Shown here piece after piece: positions 8,280 to 62,357 of a DNA stretch of 64,000 nt (positions are counted from its first letter, which is position 1; the number at the start of each line of letters is the position of its first letter). A program made the position numbers and the translations under genes. Below the pieces are notes generated by a model. That model did no database searches and had not been told where the DNA came from. It saw only the letters and a program-made list of their open reading frames with translations. The DNA is from Escherichia phage FP43: the sequence record MN648445. One strand, given 5' to 3'.

Positions 8280-9302
8280 ATGGCTGAATGGATAGATAAT
8301 GAATTTGCTTATCGTGCGTTTTCTCACCTCCCTCGTTTTAGACAAATCAATAATTCAAGCACATTTAAATTAACATTTCGATGCCCAGTTTGTGGCGACT
8401 CTCAGACAGATGCAATGAAAGCCCGCGGATGGTATTACGGCGGTACTCCAGGTAATGTGCATTGCTATAACTGTCAATACCACAATACAATTTCCGGATA
8501 CTTAAAAGAGTATGATGAAGAGCTTTATCGCGAATATCTAATGGAAGTTCGTAAAGAAAAAGCTAGAATGGAACCGAAGATTGAAAAGGTTCCTGAACAT
8601 AAACCAGAACCGGAGAAAAAGACTATAAATTCTTTGCCGTCTTGTTCTCGTCTGGACAAACTGCCTGAAGAGCATCCTATTGTGAAATATGTTAAGTCTC
8701 GGTGTATTCCTAAAGAATCGTGGAATAGATTATGGTTCACATTAGAATGGCCTAAATTGGTCAACAAGATTCAACCTGGTACGTATAAGAAAGAGATTCC
8801 CGAGCCACGTTTAGTGATTCCTATTTTTAATAAAGATGGGAAGGCCGAGTCATTCCAAGGACGTGCACTTCGTAAAGATGCTCCTCAGAAATATATCACT
8901 ATTAAAGCGTTTGAGTCTGCAACAAAAATTTATGGTGTTGAACGTGTTAAGGAAGGAGACGTCTGGGTAATGGAAGGCCCTATTGATAGTTTATTCATAC
9001 CCAATGCAATCGCTATTACAGGCGGCTCGATAGATTTAGATGTGGTACCATTTAAAGAACGTCGGGTATGGGTAATGGATAATGAACCTAGGCATCCGGA
9101 TACTATAGCTCGCATGAAGCGATTAGTTGATGCAGGCGAACGTGTCATGTTCTGGGATCGAGCTCCATGGAGTTCAAAGGATGTGAATGATATGGTAATG
9201 AAAGAAAATGCAACACCACAAGAAATTTTAGAATATATGAAACAGAATATTTCAAGTGGGTTGCATGCTAAAATGAGATTATCTCGTTATTCGAAGATTT
9301 AA
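8280..9302 (+). CDS. 61: gp61 DNA primase
   Basis: 340 aa; N-terminal Cys4 zinc ribbon (CPVCGD ... CYNCQYH), Toprim-like C-terminal half; matches recalled T4 gp61. Confidence 0.92.
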   Translation: MAEWIDNEFAYRAFSHLPRFRQINNSSTFKLTFRCPVCGDSQTDAMKARGWYYGGTPGNVHCYNCQYHNTISGYLKEYDEELYREYLMEVRKEKARMEPKIEKVPEHKPEPEKKTINSLPSCSRLDKLPEEHPIVKYVKSRCIPKESWNRLWFTLEWPKLVNKIQPGTYKKEIPEPRLVIPIFNKDGKAESFQGRALRKDAPQKYITIKAFESATKIYGVERVKEGDVWVMEGPIDSLFIPNAIAITGGSIDLDVVPFKERRVWVMDNEPRHPDTIARMKRLVDAGERVMFWDRAPWSSKDVNDMVMKENATPQEILEYMKQNISSGLHAKMRLSRYSKI

Positions 9303-9496
9303 ACAAGCCCTATAATAGCAAAGGCCAAATCAACTACAGTATCCAATGGAACAGAAGGAACTATAATACCATGGGCAACTAACAATGGTGCAATCCCGAA
9401 GTTCCATGAAATAATGCCACCTACAACTATTGCAGCGATAGCAGTTTTCTTTTTATTGCCTTTAATAGCGTTGATTAACGATGGAAGTTTAAACAT
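9299..9496 (-). CDS. small membrane protein on opposite strand
   Basis: 65 aa, two TM-like segments; AAGGAG 7 nt upstream of ATG on minus strand; convergent with gene 61. Confidence 0.5.
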   Translation of the reverse strand: MFKLPSLINAIKGNKKKTAIAAIVVGGIISWNFGIAPLLVAHGIIVPSVPLDTVVDLAFAIIGLV

Positions 9497-9584
9497 AATA
9501 TCTCCTTAGTTACCTATTATTTATTACGCTTTATAAAATTAATGTTAGAATTAACTCTCTTATACTGAATTGAAAGGAAAAATA

Positions 9585-10106
9585 ATGGCACACTTTAACG
9601 AATGTTCACAACTTATTTCTGGTGTTGATAAAGCAGAAGAAGCTTATTTTAATGCTCTGATTCACGAAGATAAAGACCCACTGCAGGTAATGCTTGATAT
9701 GCAGAAATCTTTACAGGTTCGTCTGGCAAATGACAAGCCTGAACATAACAAACATCCTGATGAATTGGCTACTGCTGGTGATGTTGTTGATTGGCTGCGT
9801 AATCAGAAAGATTATATTGATGATGAATTCCGTGAACTGCTGACTTCACTTGGTGGTATGAGCAATGGTGAAAAAGCCGCTAGCAGTGTATGGAAGCCAT
9901 GGAAAGCACAACATGCTGAATATCGAAATCGTCGTATCGATGAACTGTCTCCTGAAGACCAGCTTGAAATTAAATTTGAAATGATTGATATTCTGCATTT
10001 CGTTCTGAACATGTTCCAAGGTCTTGGTCTTTCTGCTGAAGAAATCTTTAAACTTTACTACTTGAAAAACCAACACAACTTTGAACGTCAGGATAATGGT
10101 TACTAA
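9585..10106 (+). CDS. 56: gp56 dCTPase/dUTPase (MazG-like NTP pyrophosphatase)
   Basis: MAHFNEC N-terminus, EE-x-x-E MazG-like acidic motifs; ATG 9585 preferred over in-frame 9570. Confidence 0.8.
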   Translation: MAHFNECSQLISGVDKAEEAYFNALIHEDKDPLQVMLDMQKSLQVRLANDKPEHNKHPDELATAGDVVDWLRNQKDYIDDEFRELLTSLGGMSNGEKAASSVWKPWKAQHAEYRNRRIDELSPEDQLEIKFEMIDILHFVLNMFQGLGLSAEEIFKLYYLKNQHNFERQDNGY

Positions 10107-10112
10107 TTAAGT

Positions 10113-10120
10113 TATAAATA
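10113..10120 (+). promoter_or_regulatory. late promoter TATAAATA
   Basis: exact T4 late consensus about 30 nt upstream of soc ATG. Confidence 0.6.
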
Positions 10121-10151
10121 CACCTGTAATTAAACAACAAAGGAGTTAATT

Positions 10152-10388
10152 ATGGGTGGTTATGTAAACATCAAAACCTTTACGCATCCTGCTGGTGAAG
10201 GTAAAGAAGTTAAAGGTATGGAAGTTTCTGTGCCGTTTGAGATTTATTCAAACGAACATCGGATTGCAGATTCTCATTACCAAATCTTTCCATCAGAAAA
10301 GGCAGCTTATTCTACTGTAGTTTCTGATGCAGCTGACTGGAAAACTAAGAACGCTGCAATGTTTACCCCTACACCAGTAAGTGGTTAA
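10152..10388 (+). CDS. soc: Soc small outer capsid protein
   Basis: 78 aa; GYVNIKTF ... FPSEKAAYSTV matches recalled T4 Soc. Confidence 0.85.
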   Translation: MGGYVNIKTFTHPAGEGKEVKGMEVSVPFEIYSNEHRIADSHYQIFPSEKAAYSTVVSDAADWKTKNAAMFTPTPVSG

Positions 10389-10396
10389 ATAATTTA

Positions 10397-10421
10397 AGGA
10401 ATCCTTCGGGATTCCTTTTTT
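10397..10421 (+). terminator. rho-independent terminator
   Basis: AGGAATCC-TTCG-GGATTCCT hairpin followed by TTTTT. Confidence 0.75.
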
Positions 10422-10430
10422 GTTTCTACA

Positions 10431-10460
10431 GTTTACAACCACTAAAAACTGTGTTAAGAT
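10431..10460 (+). promoter_or_regulatory. early-type promoter
   Basis: GTTTACAACC then TGTTAAGAT about 17 nt downstream. Confidence 0.5.
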
Positions 10461-10488
10461 ATTCTTACTTACTCAAGAGGAGAACAAT

Positions 10489-10930
10489 ATGTTAAATCGT
10501 TGGATTAAACCTAATAACACATTAGGTGCTTTGATTGCTCAAGAAGTTTCGTTGAAATACGGTCTTGGATATTACGATGATGTAGTCGTACACTCATTCA
10601 TGATGGATGGTGAAGACGTCAAATTTAATGCCGAAATCCGTTGGGATGATGGTGGTGTTCGTTTTGTTCGAGGAACAATTAATGCTTACGATGCTGAAGA
10701 AGTTTTTTGCTGTTAAACCAGGCGAAGGTATGATGCCTATTCCTGATACACATGAAAAAAGTTGGGAATATATTGGTGACGGAATGATGGAAGAAGTTAT
10801 TCATCCAAAAACAAAACAGGTTAATGCTTCAAGCTCTTCAAGTTATAATCATTCATACGTATCGTCTTGGTCTGGTGATTCTGGTTCAAGTTATTCTGAT
10901 TGTAGTTCGGACTCAGGGAGTTGTGATTAA
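10489..10930 (+). pseudogene. single gene split into two frames at a T6 homopolymer (10703-10708); mrh-position gene
   Basis: ORF 10489-10716 and ORF 10709-10930 become one continuous 146-aa reading frame if the T run is 5 instead of 6. Confidence 0.5.
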
Positions 10931-26312: not shown

Positions 26313-26316
26313 TAAT

Positions 26317-26340
26317 TGGGGACTTCGGTCCCCTTTTCTT
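26317..26340 (+). terminator. rho-independent terminator
   Basis: GGGGAC-TTCG-GTCCCC followed by TTTT. Confidence 0.7.
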
Positions 26341-26351
26341 TAGGGGTAATT

Positions 26352-26639
26352 ATGATTCATCCATTTGACGTATCAGAAACCAAAATTGCTAATCTTCGTG
26401 GTCATCATAAGTGTAAATCAGTTTATTGTGCTAAATTGGTAAAACATCCTGGTGATGCACACTACGGCTGGTTAGAATGCGACGAAGTTGTTATTGAAAT
26501 CCCGCCGGTAGATGCAGAATATCTTGAAGAAGGAGACCGCATTTATTTTGGTGAACTACACATCAGAGGTATTTATGGTAAAGACGAACTTGGGACTGTT
26601 GAGACTGAAGAATCTTCCGACATTTATCCTGTCGAATGA
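26352..26639 (+). CDS. hypothetical protein
   Basis: ATG 26352 downstream of terminator; 95 aa. Confidence 0.5.
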   Translation: MIHPFDVSETKIANLRGHHKCKSVYCAKLVKHPGDAHYGWLECDEVVIEIPPVDAEYLEEGDRIYFGELHIRGIYGKDELGTVETEESSDIYPVE

Positions 26640-27464: not shown

Positions 27465-27547
27465 GCTCTAAAATGTGGATAGGAATATGGTTGCTTAGTA
27501 TCCCAATGATTTGTATAATATTTTCAATTGTATTGAGGTACTTATGA
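27461..27547 (+). CDS. tiny hydrophobic peptide
   Basis: 28 aa, single TM-like segment, ATGA start overlap. Confidence 0.3.
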   Translation: MSSKMWIGIWLLSIPMICIIFSIVLRYL

Positions 27548-27654
27548 AAAATGCACTTCTTATTGTACTAAGAACAATTTGTGATACGGGTTTTTACATT
27601 GCATGTTCGTTCACTGGAACATGGTTGGCTTTAACATATTTTAATGTAATTTAA
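27544..27654 (+). CDS. tiny hydrophobic peptide
   Basis: 36 aa, ATGA overlap with previous. Confidence 0.3.
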   Translation: MKNALLIVLRTICDTGFYIACSFTGTWLALTYFNVI

Positions 27655-27656
27655 TT

Positions 27657-27694
27657 GTTTACAACAAGGTAGGATTATGGTATAGTAGTCCTAC
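27657..27694 (+). promoter_or_regulatory. early-type promoter with stem-loop
   Basis: GTTTAC 27657-27662; GTAGGA/TCCTAC arms 27669-27674/27689-27694. Confidence 0.5.
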
Positions 27695-27714
27695 TGAAAC
27701 ATGAGGAACACAAA

Positions 27715-30108: not shown

Positions 30109-30184
30109 GTGCCCTAGCCTTAGGATTTCTAGGTGCAATAGCTGCACTAGTGATTTGGCTGTATTGGTTAGACAAACATGATTA

Positions 30185-30204
30185 GGGAGCTTCGGCTCCC
30201 TTTT
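30185..30204 (+). terminator. rho-independent terminator
   Basis: GGGAGC-TTCG-GCTCCC followed by TTTT. Confidence 0.7.
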
Positions 30205-30225
30205 GTGTTTTTTTCTCACAAAACA

Positions 30226-30296
30226 GTTTACATGTGCTTCAAACGTGATATTATAGACCTATCAAAACAAAACAACCAAATTGGAGAAATAAAATG
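30226..30296 (+). repeat. promoter/5'UTR cassette copy A (early-type promoter GTTTAC/TATTAT plus leader)
   Basis: about 70 nt nearly identical to 30547-30615, ending in AATTTGGAGAAATAAAATGTCTAAA. Confidence 0.7.
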
Positions 30297-32909: not shown

Positions 32910-33060
32910 TCTTCAGAACGTAGTAGAGGCCGAACGTGAGCGTGAGGCTTTAGTCTATAATGAACTATTAGCTCCGTTCTTAGCCTTACACTCGTACGAA
33001 CAAGAAGACTACATTGATTATGTTAAAAGCGTAGAAAAAGCCGTTTACAATCAACACTGA
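32900..33060 (+). CDS. small hypothetical protein
   Basis: 53-aa ORF; ATG 32900 preferred over upstream 32845. Confidence 0.35.
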
Positions 33061-33106
33061 TAATGGTACTATATCCATATCAACCAAGTGGAATGAATAA
33101 AACGTT

Positions 33107-48014: not shown

Positions 48015-48016
48015 AA

Positions 48017-49792
<1,776 letters not shown>

Positions 49793-61451: not shown

Positions 61452-61458
61452 TATAAAT
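61451..61458 (+). promoter_or_regulatory. late promoter TATAAATA
   Basis: exact TATAAATA between gene 31 and rIII. Confidence 0.45.
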
Positions 61459-61575
61459 AACTATATGAAGAGAACACTCTTCTAAGCGGTAGCCTACAAC
61501 TGAGAGACTTGTCGAAAGAAGGTGAAATTCAGACGAACGTGGCTACTAAATATTATCTCGAATTGAGAATTTAAA

Positions 61576-61824
61576 ATGATTAAACAATTACAACACGCTC
61601 TTGAACTGCAACGCAACGCATGGAATAACGGTCACGAAAACTACGGCGCGTCAATTGATGTTGAAGCCGAAGCACTGGAAATCCTGCGTTATTTCAAACA
61701 CCTGAATCCTGCTCAGGCTACTCTGGCTTCTGAACTGGAAGCTAAAGATGAATTGAAATATGCTAAGCCTCTGGCTTCTGCAGCACGCAAAGCAGTTCGT
61801 CATTTTGTTATTACCCTTAAATAA
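61576..61824 (+). CDS. rIII: rIII lysis-inhibition accessory protein
   Basis: 82 aa; synteny after gene 31. Confidence 0.75.
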   Translation: MIKQLQHALELQRNAWNNGHENYGASIDVEAEALEILRYFKHLNPAQATLASELEAKDELKYAKPLASAARKAVRHFVITLK

Positions 61825-62118
61825 GTTTTAGGTGATTCGCTACCTTAGTGCGGCTAGAAAATCGAGGAGCCGTCGAACTGTCTGATTAATGATTTGCGAA
61901 TCATTATAGTTTTAAGACCCCGGCAGTTTTACGGTGTACCTCTTGAATGTATTTTATACTATCACGCGTCAGAAAAAGGTTATCTGTCTAAGTCGTGGTT
62001 GGTATGATGACGGGTTTATGGTTATCCTGTCGTTAAATATCCAAAACCTATGTTCCCCTTGAGGGCTTGCGCAGGCAATGTCAATAAGTCCTGCATTTTC
62101 ATTTAAAGAGAATTTATA

Positions 62119-62298
62119 ATGGCAAAACAAGCTAAAGCAAAGAAAGCAGTTGAAAAGAAAGTTGATGGTACCTCTAAACGCGCTGGATACAAGCGTGGGT
62201 CGAACTCTCGTATTAATCAAACAGTTGAGAAGATCATGCGCAGAGCACGTGCAGTTCTTCGAGATGATGCTTCTCGTTTTGGAAAGGTTGTTGCATAA
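62119..62298 (+). CDS. small basic protein (30.9 position)
   Basis: 59 aa, Lys/Arg-rich (MAKQAKAKKAVEKK); followed by a strong terminator. Confidence 0.5.
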   Translation: MAKQAKAKKAVEKKVDGTSKRAGYKRGSNSRINQTVEKIMRRARAVLRDDASRFGKVVA

Positions 62299-62303
62299 TT
62301 TTA

Positions 62304-62325
62304 GGGAGACTTCGGTCTCCCTTTT
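62304..62325 (+). terminator. rho-independent terminator
   Basis: GGGAGAC-TTCG-GTCTCCC followed by TTTT. Confidence 0.75.
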
Positions 62326-62357
62326 GTGCGTTTAGGGCAGAAAAAGTTTAAAAAGAT

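Follow-up and report, generated by a model that had tools for sequence, protein, structure and literature searches.

A ToxI-like unit and other conserved RNA modules in the spacer between rIII and 30.9 of T-even phages: a putative counter-defence decoy

The spacer between genes rIII and 30.9 of Escherichia phage FP43 (sequence record MN648445) opens with a unit homologous to ToxI, the antitoxin RNA of the ToxIN defence system, and contains several other conserved RNA structures. It was analysed within a stretch of 64,000 nucleotides (nt), hereafter called the window, where it measures 294 nt since rIII ends at 61824 and 30.9 starts at 62119. The phage is a T4-like Mosigvirus (an RB69-like T-even phage) and the region is 99.7% identical to that of Enterobacteria phage ATK47. 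We consider the spacer to be a transcribed plus-strand non-coding RNA island of self-contained modules, the first of which would be a ToxI mimic serving as a counter-defence decoy, and we give this reading as a whole a probability of about 0.55. A preliminary description of the same DNA had pointed to a non-coding region of about 290 nt after rIII, and this was borne out, as no conserved open reading frame (ORF) spans positions 61825-62118.

The module that carries the argument is the following:

61830-61863, plus strand: single ToxI-like unit (pseudo-ToxI, module A0) of 34 nt, AGGTGATTCGCTACCTTAGTGCGGCTAGAAAATC, recognised by its match to the toxI consensus, by BLAST and by a covarying helix

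This unit is colinear with the 36-nt toxI consensus over its full length and identical to it at 31 of the 36 positions. The alignment score was 46, compared with no more than 26 in shuffled sequences, and no other such site exists in the 64-kb window. The unit of the G53 type reaches 32/36, and those of T4, T2 and T6 21-25/36. When the spacer was compared by BLAST with 72,556 plasmids and 5,426 complete E. coli genomes, only toxI arrays were retrieved, all through spacer nt 1-43, and among them was pECA1039, the founding ToxIN plasmid. Moreover, the A0 unit of Jiaodavirus matches 67 small mobilisable plasmids of E. coli, Salmonella, Klebsiella, Yersinia and Pectobacterium at 3-10 places each. 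In the E. coli plasmid pNMEC-O75B these places form a 5.6-copy array of the 36-nt repeat AGGTGATTTGCTACCTTTAAGTGCAGCTAGAAATTC, located immediately upstream of an annotated type III ToxN/AbiQ toxin gene. The core common to A0 and the ToxI repeat is GGUGAUU.GCUACC..AGUGC.GCUAGAAA.

The structure of the unit is conserved together with its sequence. One helix (columns 14-16/28-30 of alignment A5) is 100% paired in 12/12 sequences and has two covarying pairs, one occurring as U-A, C-G or A-U and the other as G-C or A-U, and a second helix is 92% paired in the same alignment; both were derived from this alignment and not from the ToxI crystal structure. The differences between the A0 unit of the window and ToxI include a compensatory change of U-A to C-G. 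As with phage pseudo-ToxI, the ToxI-like sequence lies in a phage non-coding region. The window has one A0 unit with no second copy, so there is no tandem array, and its neighbours are rIII and 30.9 instead of toxN; for these two reasons A0 is taken as a phage-borne mimic and not as the antitoxin of a toxin-antitoxin pair.

Module A0 is present in the window phage, ATK47, G53, Gaprivervirus, Jiaodavirus and others, and absent from RB69, Shf125875, phiC120 and LF82-3. Since RB69 lacks the unit and ATK47, G53 and the window phage have it, its presence varies within one genus. In RB69 (L351:3844-4106; L numbers are our labels for the loci and contigs compared) module A, the long hairpin described below, follows the rIII stop codon after a few bases, without a ToxI-like unit. 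Altogether, ToxI-like units were found in 275 phage records from several families (T-even, T5-like and others), a distribution far wider than Pectobacterium phage PhiTE. In Salmonella phage 7-11 one such unit fills a spacer of 89 nt. The T4-type unit (L003:1201-1232) presumably shares TTCACTGCC and an end resembling AGCTAAAA with type I-F CRISPR repeats, and the GTTCCCC of the small hairpin region of the window (62052-62066) presumably also occurs in the type I-E repeat of E. coli; no CRISPR array was retrieved when the window spacer was searched by BLAST against all E. coli genomes.

A possible sequence of events can be proposed from what is known of the two systems. ToxI keeps the endoribonuclease ToxN inactive. 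Shut-off of host transcription by the phage leads to decay of the unstable ToxI, so that ToxN is freed and cuts phage RNA at GAAAU (PMC10853763). In T4, rIII is transcribed from promoters of all three classes, early, middle and late (PMC9409239), and the island would be carried on rIII transcripts. The A0 RNA made from phage promoters would replace the lost host ToxI and bind ToxN, blunting abortive infection by ToxIN, much as PhiTE escapes ToxIN through a ToxI-like RNA (PMC3475682). The sequences themselves demonstrate the homology to ToxI, the conservation of structure, the strand specificity, the modularity and the distribution among genomes; we infer expression, ToxN binding and a counter-defence effect, as well as the roles of the other modules described below, and A0 probably helps the phage to disarm the ToxIN defence.

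Several observations weigh against this proposal. A single repeat of the PhiTE pseudo-ToxI fails to neutralise ToxN and escape needs 4.5-5.5 repeats (PMC3475682), and only one A0 unit is found here as opposed to the tandem arrays of the antitoxin. The ToxN motif GAAAU is inexact at both edges of A0 (GAAAAU at the 3' edge and UAAAU on the 5' side), and is exact in the 311F-type unit. Plasmid-borne toxIN strongly blocks T2, T4 and T6 and RB69 less (PMC9391042); the three blocked phages have a degenerate unit (21-25/36) and the less-blocked RB69 has none. The T-even phages can already inhibit ToxN with a protein, TifA (gene 61.4). Furthermore, no bacterial cognate of the pseudoknot or of any other module apart from the ToxI-like one was found in plasmids and E. 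coli genomes. The idea that RB69 owes its tolerance of toxIN to the mimic was rejected, as RB69 lacks the unit. It was likewise considered whether gp30.9 is a known RNA-binding protein or TifA, and this was discarded because gp30.9 belongs to no family and TifA is the product of gene 61.4.

The remaining modules of the spacer are, in order:

61864-61942, plus strand: module A, a long, irregular four-helix hairpin of about 80 nt (minimum free energy fold and RNAalifold consensus)
61864-61867/61939-61942, plus strand: helix P1 of module A (fold)
61869-61873/61931-61935, plus strand: helix P2 of module A (fold)
61875-61882/61922-61929, plus strand: helix P3 of module A (fold)
61887-61894/61899-61906, plus strand: helix P4 with a UGCG loop, the tip of module A and the second hairpin of the preliminary description
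61928-61962, plus strand: early-promoter-like remnant, TTTACG (61928-61933), a 23-nt gap and TACTAT (61957-61962), from comparison with T6 and T2
61963-61997, plus strand: hairpin B, CACG/CGTG (61963-61966/61994-61997) around CAGA/TCTG (61970-61973/61984-61987)
62007-62051, plus strand: H-type pseudoknot, S1 62007-62014/62026-62033 and S2 62020-62023/62045-62048, possibly extended by 62017-62018/62049-62050 (covariance model and covariation)
62034-62044, plus strand: L3 of the pseudoknot, UAAAUAUCCAA
62055-62065, plus strand: small hairpin of G-C pairs (CCC/GGG) with the conserved motif CUUG after it (RNAalifold pairs)
62071-62105, plus strand: terminator-like hairpin GCAGG/CCUGC (62071-62075/62090-62094) with the 14-nt loop CAAUGUCAAUAAGU and the U-rich run AUUUUCAUUUA
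62095-62113, plus strand: hairpin of six pairs occluding the Shine-Dalgarno (SD) sequence of 30.9, AUUUUC (62095-62100)/GAGAAU (62108-62113), read from the sequence

A single site homologous to the spacer exists in each of about 770 phage genomes, T4, T2 and T6 among them; its T4 counterpart (AF158101, 130541-130784) has nothing annotated. Between Mosigvirus and T2/T6 the spacer is about 90% identical, and as judged by eye from the alignment its conserved blocks differ less than the adjacent 3' end of rIII. In every genus of enterobacterial Tevenvirinae sampled the rIII/30.9 spacer measures 120-416 nt. In more distant T4-like contigs a 44-aa homologue of 30.9 lies only 8-9 nt after rIII, and the spacer can therefore be regarded as an insertion that neither gene needs. 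The modules were found to be shuffled, and singly gained or lost, between related genera. In the window the order is A0, A, promoter-like remnant, B, pseudoknot, small hairpin, and finally the last hairpin with its U-tract overlapping the SD hairpin, whereas in Karamvirus it is small hairpin, pseudoknot, A0 and terminator, and in Jiaodavirus hairpin, pseudoknot, A0, X, small hairpin and long hairpin. Modules A0, A and B and the pseudoknot all show compensatory changes.

The module called X is absent from the window. It is a conserved non-coding element of 137 nt found in the rIII/30.9 spacer of 404 phage records (Klebsiella, Escherichia, Enterobacter, Citrobacter and others), as at L019:864-1000 and L013:~905-1045 and in L006, L008, L014, L017 and L020. 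It shows compensatory changes (UAUAUAU, UACAU..GUGUA, UGCAU..GUGCA) and contains a likely pseudoknot as well as a GNRA-capped hairpin that occurs as CCGA-GAAA-UCGG or CUGA-GAAA-UCAG. Module X has no Rfam match and no annotation.

Two of the modules have a second habitat in tRNA arrays. In the T5-like Klebsiella phage pzk-kv23 (L352:2499-2645) two ToxI-like units come right after tRNA-Ile in an array of 15 tRNAs. In the uncultured viral contig L070, tRNA-Asp and tRNA-Pro of a 12-tRNA array are 58 nt apart and the pseudoknot occupies precisely this gap; in L095 (L142 is the same contig) it begins immediately after tRNA-Met, and in L082 it is found 220 nt after tRNA-Ile. A pattern scan of metagenome contigs, in which nearly all matches were due to chance, added one new context, L166, where the pseudoknot lies within a non-coding unit between a consensus promoter and a terminator. 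From these tRNA-array and stand-alone contexts it is evident that each module works on its own as an RNA, and not as a part of the rIII or 30.9 message whose action depends on its position. Modules A and B, the pseudoknot and the small hairpin are conserved folded RNAs; they would be autonomous, either stable processed RNAs or protein decoys, and to regard them as stable decoy or effector RNAs like A0 is the most economical reading.

Some further observations were made in these arrays. In pzk-kv23 a second copy of the 3' two-thirds of tRNA-Ile follows the two units, which looks like the scar of a duplication or insertion, and in the L352 stretch of this record 0/15 tRNAs are annotated. Beside the 12-tRNA array of L070 there is a 473-aa ORF (8936-10357, minus strand) which by eye only resembles TROVE/Ro60 proteins with a vWA domain. 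Proteins of the TROVE/Ro60 type are partners of Y RNAs.

The same material bears on a purely cis-acting explanation, according to which the spacer would be a 31-rIII 3' untranslated region (with blocks to 3' exonucleases or processing marks) joined to a leader or attenuator that limits 30.9 expression, the ToxI-like stretch being a relic, now without a role, of an earlier recombination with a toxIN plasmid. The spacer does lie between two co-oriented genes, and its terminator-like and SD-masking hairpins are conserved; in addition, the unit is degenerate in T4, T2 and T6, which are sensitive to toxIN, and one PhiTE escape mutant gained toxI by recombination (PMC3475682). However, the order of the modules and their distance to either gene are freely variable, and copies of the pseudoknot and of A0 are also located in tRNA arrays or in a stand-alone unit, where there is no mRNA to stabilise. 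Moreover the A0 helix is kept by compensatory change across genera, unlike a decaying relic. A cis-acting role for the whole spacer is thus a serious alternative, though an unlikely one.

The pseudoknot shows strong covariation, and with the covariance model R1, built on 33 of its variants, exactly one copy per locus was found in 57 loci, always on the gene (plus) strand, with none elsewhere in the window. Over both helices 83% of the alignment cells are paired and 8 of the 14 pairs show double changes, which cover 93 cells; sliding the partner strand yields no more than 24. The covariation score of 0.34 likewise exceeds the maximum of 0.11 for slid strands, the observed values were reached by 0/500 shuffles, and the signal holds despite a 1-nt insertion that puts the T4-type rows out of register. 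Helix S2 varies freely (GGUU/AACC, GAAAGUU/AACUUUC, CAAGGUU/AACCUUG, UGUGAG/CUCACA). The pair U62008.G62032 is invariant; its complement would read A.C, and it is therefore the plus-strand RNA that is under selection. The distance of the pseudoknot from rIII ranges from 18 to 180 nt, and from 30.9 from 65 to more than 250 nt. Among named phages only T4-like phages matched its variants, and a scan of bacterial genomes for tandem pseudoknots returned chance matches only. RNAalifold also proposed a 16-bp alternative helix pairing 62006-62023 with 62080-62097 (the last hairpin would contribute its loop and 3' strand, the pseudoknot its 5' half), which would resemble a switch. This helix is invariant in close relatives, but it was set aside because loci of the Gelderlandvirus type, which have a different S2 and an unchanged loop, do not support it.

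The topology of this element equals P1 plus the pseudoknot of pistol ribozymes, and it could be asked whether it is a self-cleaving ribozyme of that type, possibly minimal or permuted, cutting the polycistronic transcript or tRNA precursors. In both RNAs a hairpin loop forms a pseudoknot of 4-9 bp with a downstream strand. S1 and S2 of the present element covary, and once the hairpin closes it continues with the A-rich junction CGUUAAAUA, identical to that of the env25 pistol (PMC6101554), in which A19-A21 dock in the minor groove and form A-minor triples with P1 (PMC6101554; PMC4604425). Pistols are, in addition, associated with phages (PMC4604425). Nevertheless neither P2 nor P3 nor the 2-nt GU cleavage junction could be placed, the linker where P2 would be varies without a covarying partner, and the element is complete in 45-50 nt. 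The element of L070 ends 3 nt before the next tRNA, leaving no room for P2 and P3, and the Rfam Pistol model gave no match to 141 nt even at E <= 10. The pseudoknot is therefore classed as similar to the folding nucleus of a pistol and not as a pistol itself, and cleavage activity of this kind is quite improbable.

Module A contains the second of the hairpins of the preliminary description. Two stable hairpins had been reported, and both stems do exist at 61851-61855/61868-61872 and 61887-61894/61899-61906. The second, of 8 bp, is a genuine structure: only 2.7% of dinucleotide shuffles reach 8 bp, and it is kept among relatives with compensatory changes. The first, CGGCT/AGCCG, does not rise above chance, since perfect stems of 5 bp or longer occur in 76% of shuffles, and it is not conserved, T4, T2 and T6 having GAGCT at that site. 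One of its arms falls in the ToxI-like unit and the other in helix P2 of module A, two distinct conserved elements; the AGCCG of the 3' arm is the 5' strand of P2. As a whole the spacer has an ordinary folding energy (z = -0.6 for the plus and -1.3 for the minus strand). With a real, covarying 8-bp stem in a spacer of such ordinary energy, the phrase "two stable hairpins" both undersells and partly misdescribes the region. The suggestion of a small RNA or a structured 5' leader was right in kind, given the conserved plus-strand RNA, the ToxI-like module and the SD-sequestering hairpin at the 3' end; the description itself has to be corrected as to the first hairpin, which is no feature, and as to the extent of the structure, which goes well past two hairpins.

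All four helices of module A were recovered by RNAalifold, with 6 pairs changed on both sides. The variants include GCCAU/AUGGU, GAAUUGUC/GACAAUUU and UAUCGAUU/AAUCGGUA. In P2 the pair G-C changes to A-U through G.U and A.C intermediates, in P3 C-G changes to U-A, and in P4 A-U changes to U.G and U-A to C-G. Two loci (L010 and L050) have lost the apical part of the module and retained P1-P2. Hairpin B has the compensatory variants CAUG/CAUG and CAGC/GCUG in L009 and L021, and in L040 its apical sequence caps a terminator hairpin.

The promoter-like remnant overlaps the end of module A. In T6 and T2 it reads TTTACG-N17-TACTAT, beside the long hairpin, and fits the published T4/PST PeSL promoter consensus, TTTACW-N17-TAYWAT. 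This, together with the plasticity of the region and its frequent indels between phages, would suit a promoter/stem-loop cassette of the PeSL type, that is, a module of T4-type genomes that serves recombination and regulation at the level of DNA. However, owing to a 6-nt insertion the hexamers are 23 nt apart in the window, a deletion in T4 removes the -10 element, and a sigma-70 scan found no promoter at 61928-61962. PeSLs are dispersed repeats, whereas the spacer is single-copy, both by a repeat search of the window and in whole genomes. Covariation that passes through G.U pairs moreover indicates that RNA and not DNA is under selection, and a PeSL origin of the spacer has accordingly little probability.

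A missed small protein gene, or hairpins arisen by chance in a non-functional spacer, were also considered. Some depositors have annotated small ORFs here (G53, UPEC07), and the folding energy of the whole spacer, as stated, is ordinary. In the window the only ORFs crossing the spacer are one of 37 aa with a TTG start and one of 42 aa with a GTG start, and in relatives indels of 1, 6, 50 and about 100 nt break such frames; the short conserved ORF that would have spoken for a gene was not found. Chance would not account for the identity of about 90% between Mosigvirus and T2/T6, nor for blocks that change less than the 3' end of rIII, and the substitutions are compensatory. On the pattern of indels and covariation both explanations are excluded, with next to no probability left to them.

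General scans were largely negative. A search with Rfam 15 over the locus, its sister loci and the whole window, the check proposed in the preliminary description, returned no match to any module. An authentic toxI array used as a control also gave no match, and Rfam would therefore miss RNAs of the ToxI class anyway. ARAGORN found no tRNA or tmRNA gene in the window, and promoter and terminator scans made no call within the spacer. A 15-nt complementarity between the spacer and 30.9 (62212-62226) is at chance level (E = 3.5).

The 3' end of the spacer differs from the other modules in that it probably acts in cis. The small hairpin, which precedes it in the window, was found in all genera with the loops UUGA, UUCG or UAUG, and directly follows the rIII stop codon in Karamvirus-type loci. 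The terminator-like hairpin has a 5-bp stem with 4 G-C pairs, a 14-nt loop and AUUUUCAUUU, and a scan for intrinsic terminators allowing loops of 3-8 nt calls none at 62071-62105. Its loop CAAUGUCAAUAAGU is conserved on the differing stem GAACUGG/CCAGUUC in L018, L035 and L050, and other genera have different hairpins with a U-rich tract at this site. The U-tract pairs with the ribosome-binding site of 30.9, whose SD sequence is contained in the GAGAAU strand, and in other genera this pairing is kept with other sequences (AUUCU/AGAAU, UCUCC/GGAAGA, ACUCC/GGAAGA). The last hairpin and the U-tract would thus probably cause a partial stop of transcription and mask the ribosome-binding site of 30.9.

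Two features of database records concern this end. In the records of T6, Ozark and LZ1 (L004:1041-1259, L010:978-1196 and L012:653-871) gene 30.9 is annotated with an N-terminal extension of 14 codons that reaches into the last hairpin; in the window such an extension is ruled out by an in-frame TAA at 62104-62106 (62104-62121 being compared). The ATK47 record has a 10-bp "ori type 2 repeat" at L001:2200-2209, equivalent to window positions 62099-62108 and lying within the anti-SD hairpin, and no second copy of it or other origin-like feature was seen.

The genes around the spacer, all on the plus strand, are in the order cd, 31.1, 31, rIII, 30.9 and 30.8, and the flanking features are:

61452-61459, plus strand: T4 late-promoter consensus TATAAATA upstream of rIII, relevant to possible transcription across the spacer, read from the sequence
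61576-61824, plus strand: rIII, 82 aa, upstream flank (ORF; PHROG 1457, E = 2.6e-43; ATK47 annotation)
62119-62298, plus strand: gene 30.9, 59 aa, basic, downstream flank (ORF; PHROG 1427, of unknown function)
62304-62327, plus strand: CUUCGG terminator 3' of 30.9 (sequence; ATK47 terminator annotation)

The small basic ORF followed by a terminator that had been noted after the spacer is thus 30.9 with its CUUCGG terminator. No Pfam family matched gp30.9. The unusual length ascribed to the spacer was also confirmed, as it ranks second among the 97 gaps of the window by crude ORF-based gene calls, the median gap being 39 nt. By the same crude calls there are other long plus-strand gaps, of 185-303 nt, at 48015-48317, 27465-27714, 10389-10606, 26313-26511, 32910-33106 and 30109-30293.

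No description of the rIII/30.9 region was found in the literature covered on the T4 spacer, T4 non-coding RNAs and PeSLs. In the part of the ToxIN and T4 literature covered, TifA is reported for T4 and pseudo-ToxI for PhiTE only, with no ToxI-like RNA in T-even genomes. In the records examined no annotation coincides with the ToxI-like unit or the pseudoknot apart from the few small ORF calls, the sole other annotation of the spacer being the "ori type 2 repeat" farther along. The T-even phages are the best-studied phages, and toxIN against T4 is a current model of defence and counter-defence. A conserved and variably present ToxI mimic after rIII would provide a testable second route of escape and may explain differences in host range. 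Some 290 nt hold five or six covarying structures that RNA databases do not recognise, and modules of this kind recur in phage tRNA arrays, which suggests that the "spacers" and tRNA clusters of large phages may hide a repertoire of functional small RNAs. Screening based on Rfam is blind to RNAs resembling type III antitoxins.

The proposal for A0 could be extended to the whole spacer. Every module, the 45-nt pseudoknot, the long hairpin, hairpin B and module X of sister phages included, would then imitate, as mimic or decoy, some host RNA by which a defence nuclease is controlled, the candidate targets including other type III antitoxins, whose monomers measure 36-50 nt. The cassettes would have been planted after rIII in T-even phages, or inside tRNA arrays in T5-like and uncultured phages, because these regions are heavily transcribed and processed. 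This extension is tentative and, as it stands, rather doubtful; if true, the pseudoknot would be a new and widespread class of phage anti-defence RNA with the fold nucleus of a pistol.

The spacer can be compared with several known systems. Like the ToxI of Pectobacterium pECA1039 and of the small E. coli plasmids, A0 follows the 36-nt repeat and keeps its internal helix by compensatory change, but the antitoxin is a tandem array of 3-10 units beside toxN whereas A0 is single and phage-encoded between rIII and 30.9. The pseudo-ToxI of PhiTE (PMC3475682) is likewise a ToxI-like but non-identical sequence in a phage intergenic region, with antitoxin mimicry as the proposed action. It differs in having 1.5 repeats, which expand to 4.5-5.5 in escape mutants, and a demonstrated function (PMC3475682), whereas the window has one unit amid other structured modules and is known from its sequence.

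Hairpins that sequester ribosome-binding sites are a familiar means of translational control in T4. The pairing of the 30.9 SD sequence with an upstream pyrimidine run recalls them, although the SD hairpin of the window lacks an internal late promoter. A pseudoknot upstream of a gene is also found in the operator of the T4 gene 32 mRNA (PMC10690425), but the pseudoknot of the window is at no fixed distance from 30.9 and occurs elsewhere without a downstream gene. Finally, rnaC and rnaD of T4 (species 1 and 2), at the end of the tRNA cluster, were considered as homologues of the modules and rejected, as no similarity was seen by eye and R1 gave only a chance-level match of 12.7 bits in that region. 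The T-even modules lie after rIII, outside the tRNA cluster; rnaC and rnaD are small, stable and structured phage RNAs located beside tRNA genes, which is also where the pseudoknot and ToxI-like units occur in other phages.

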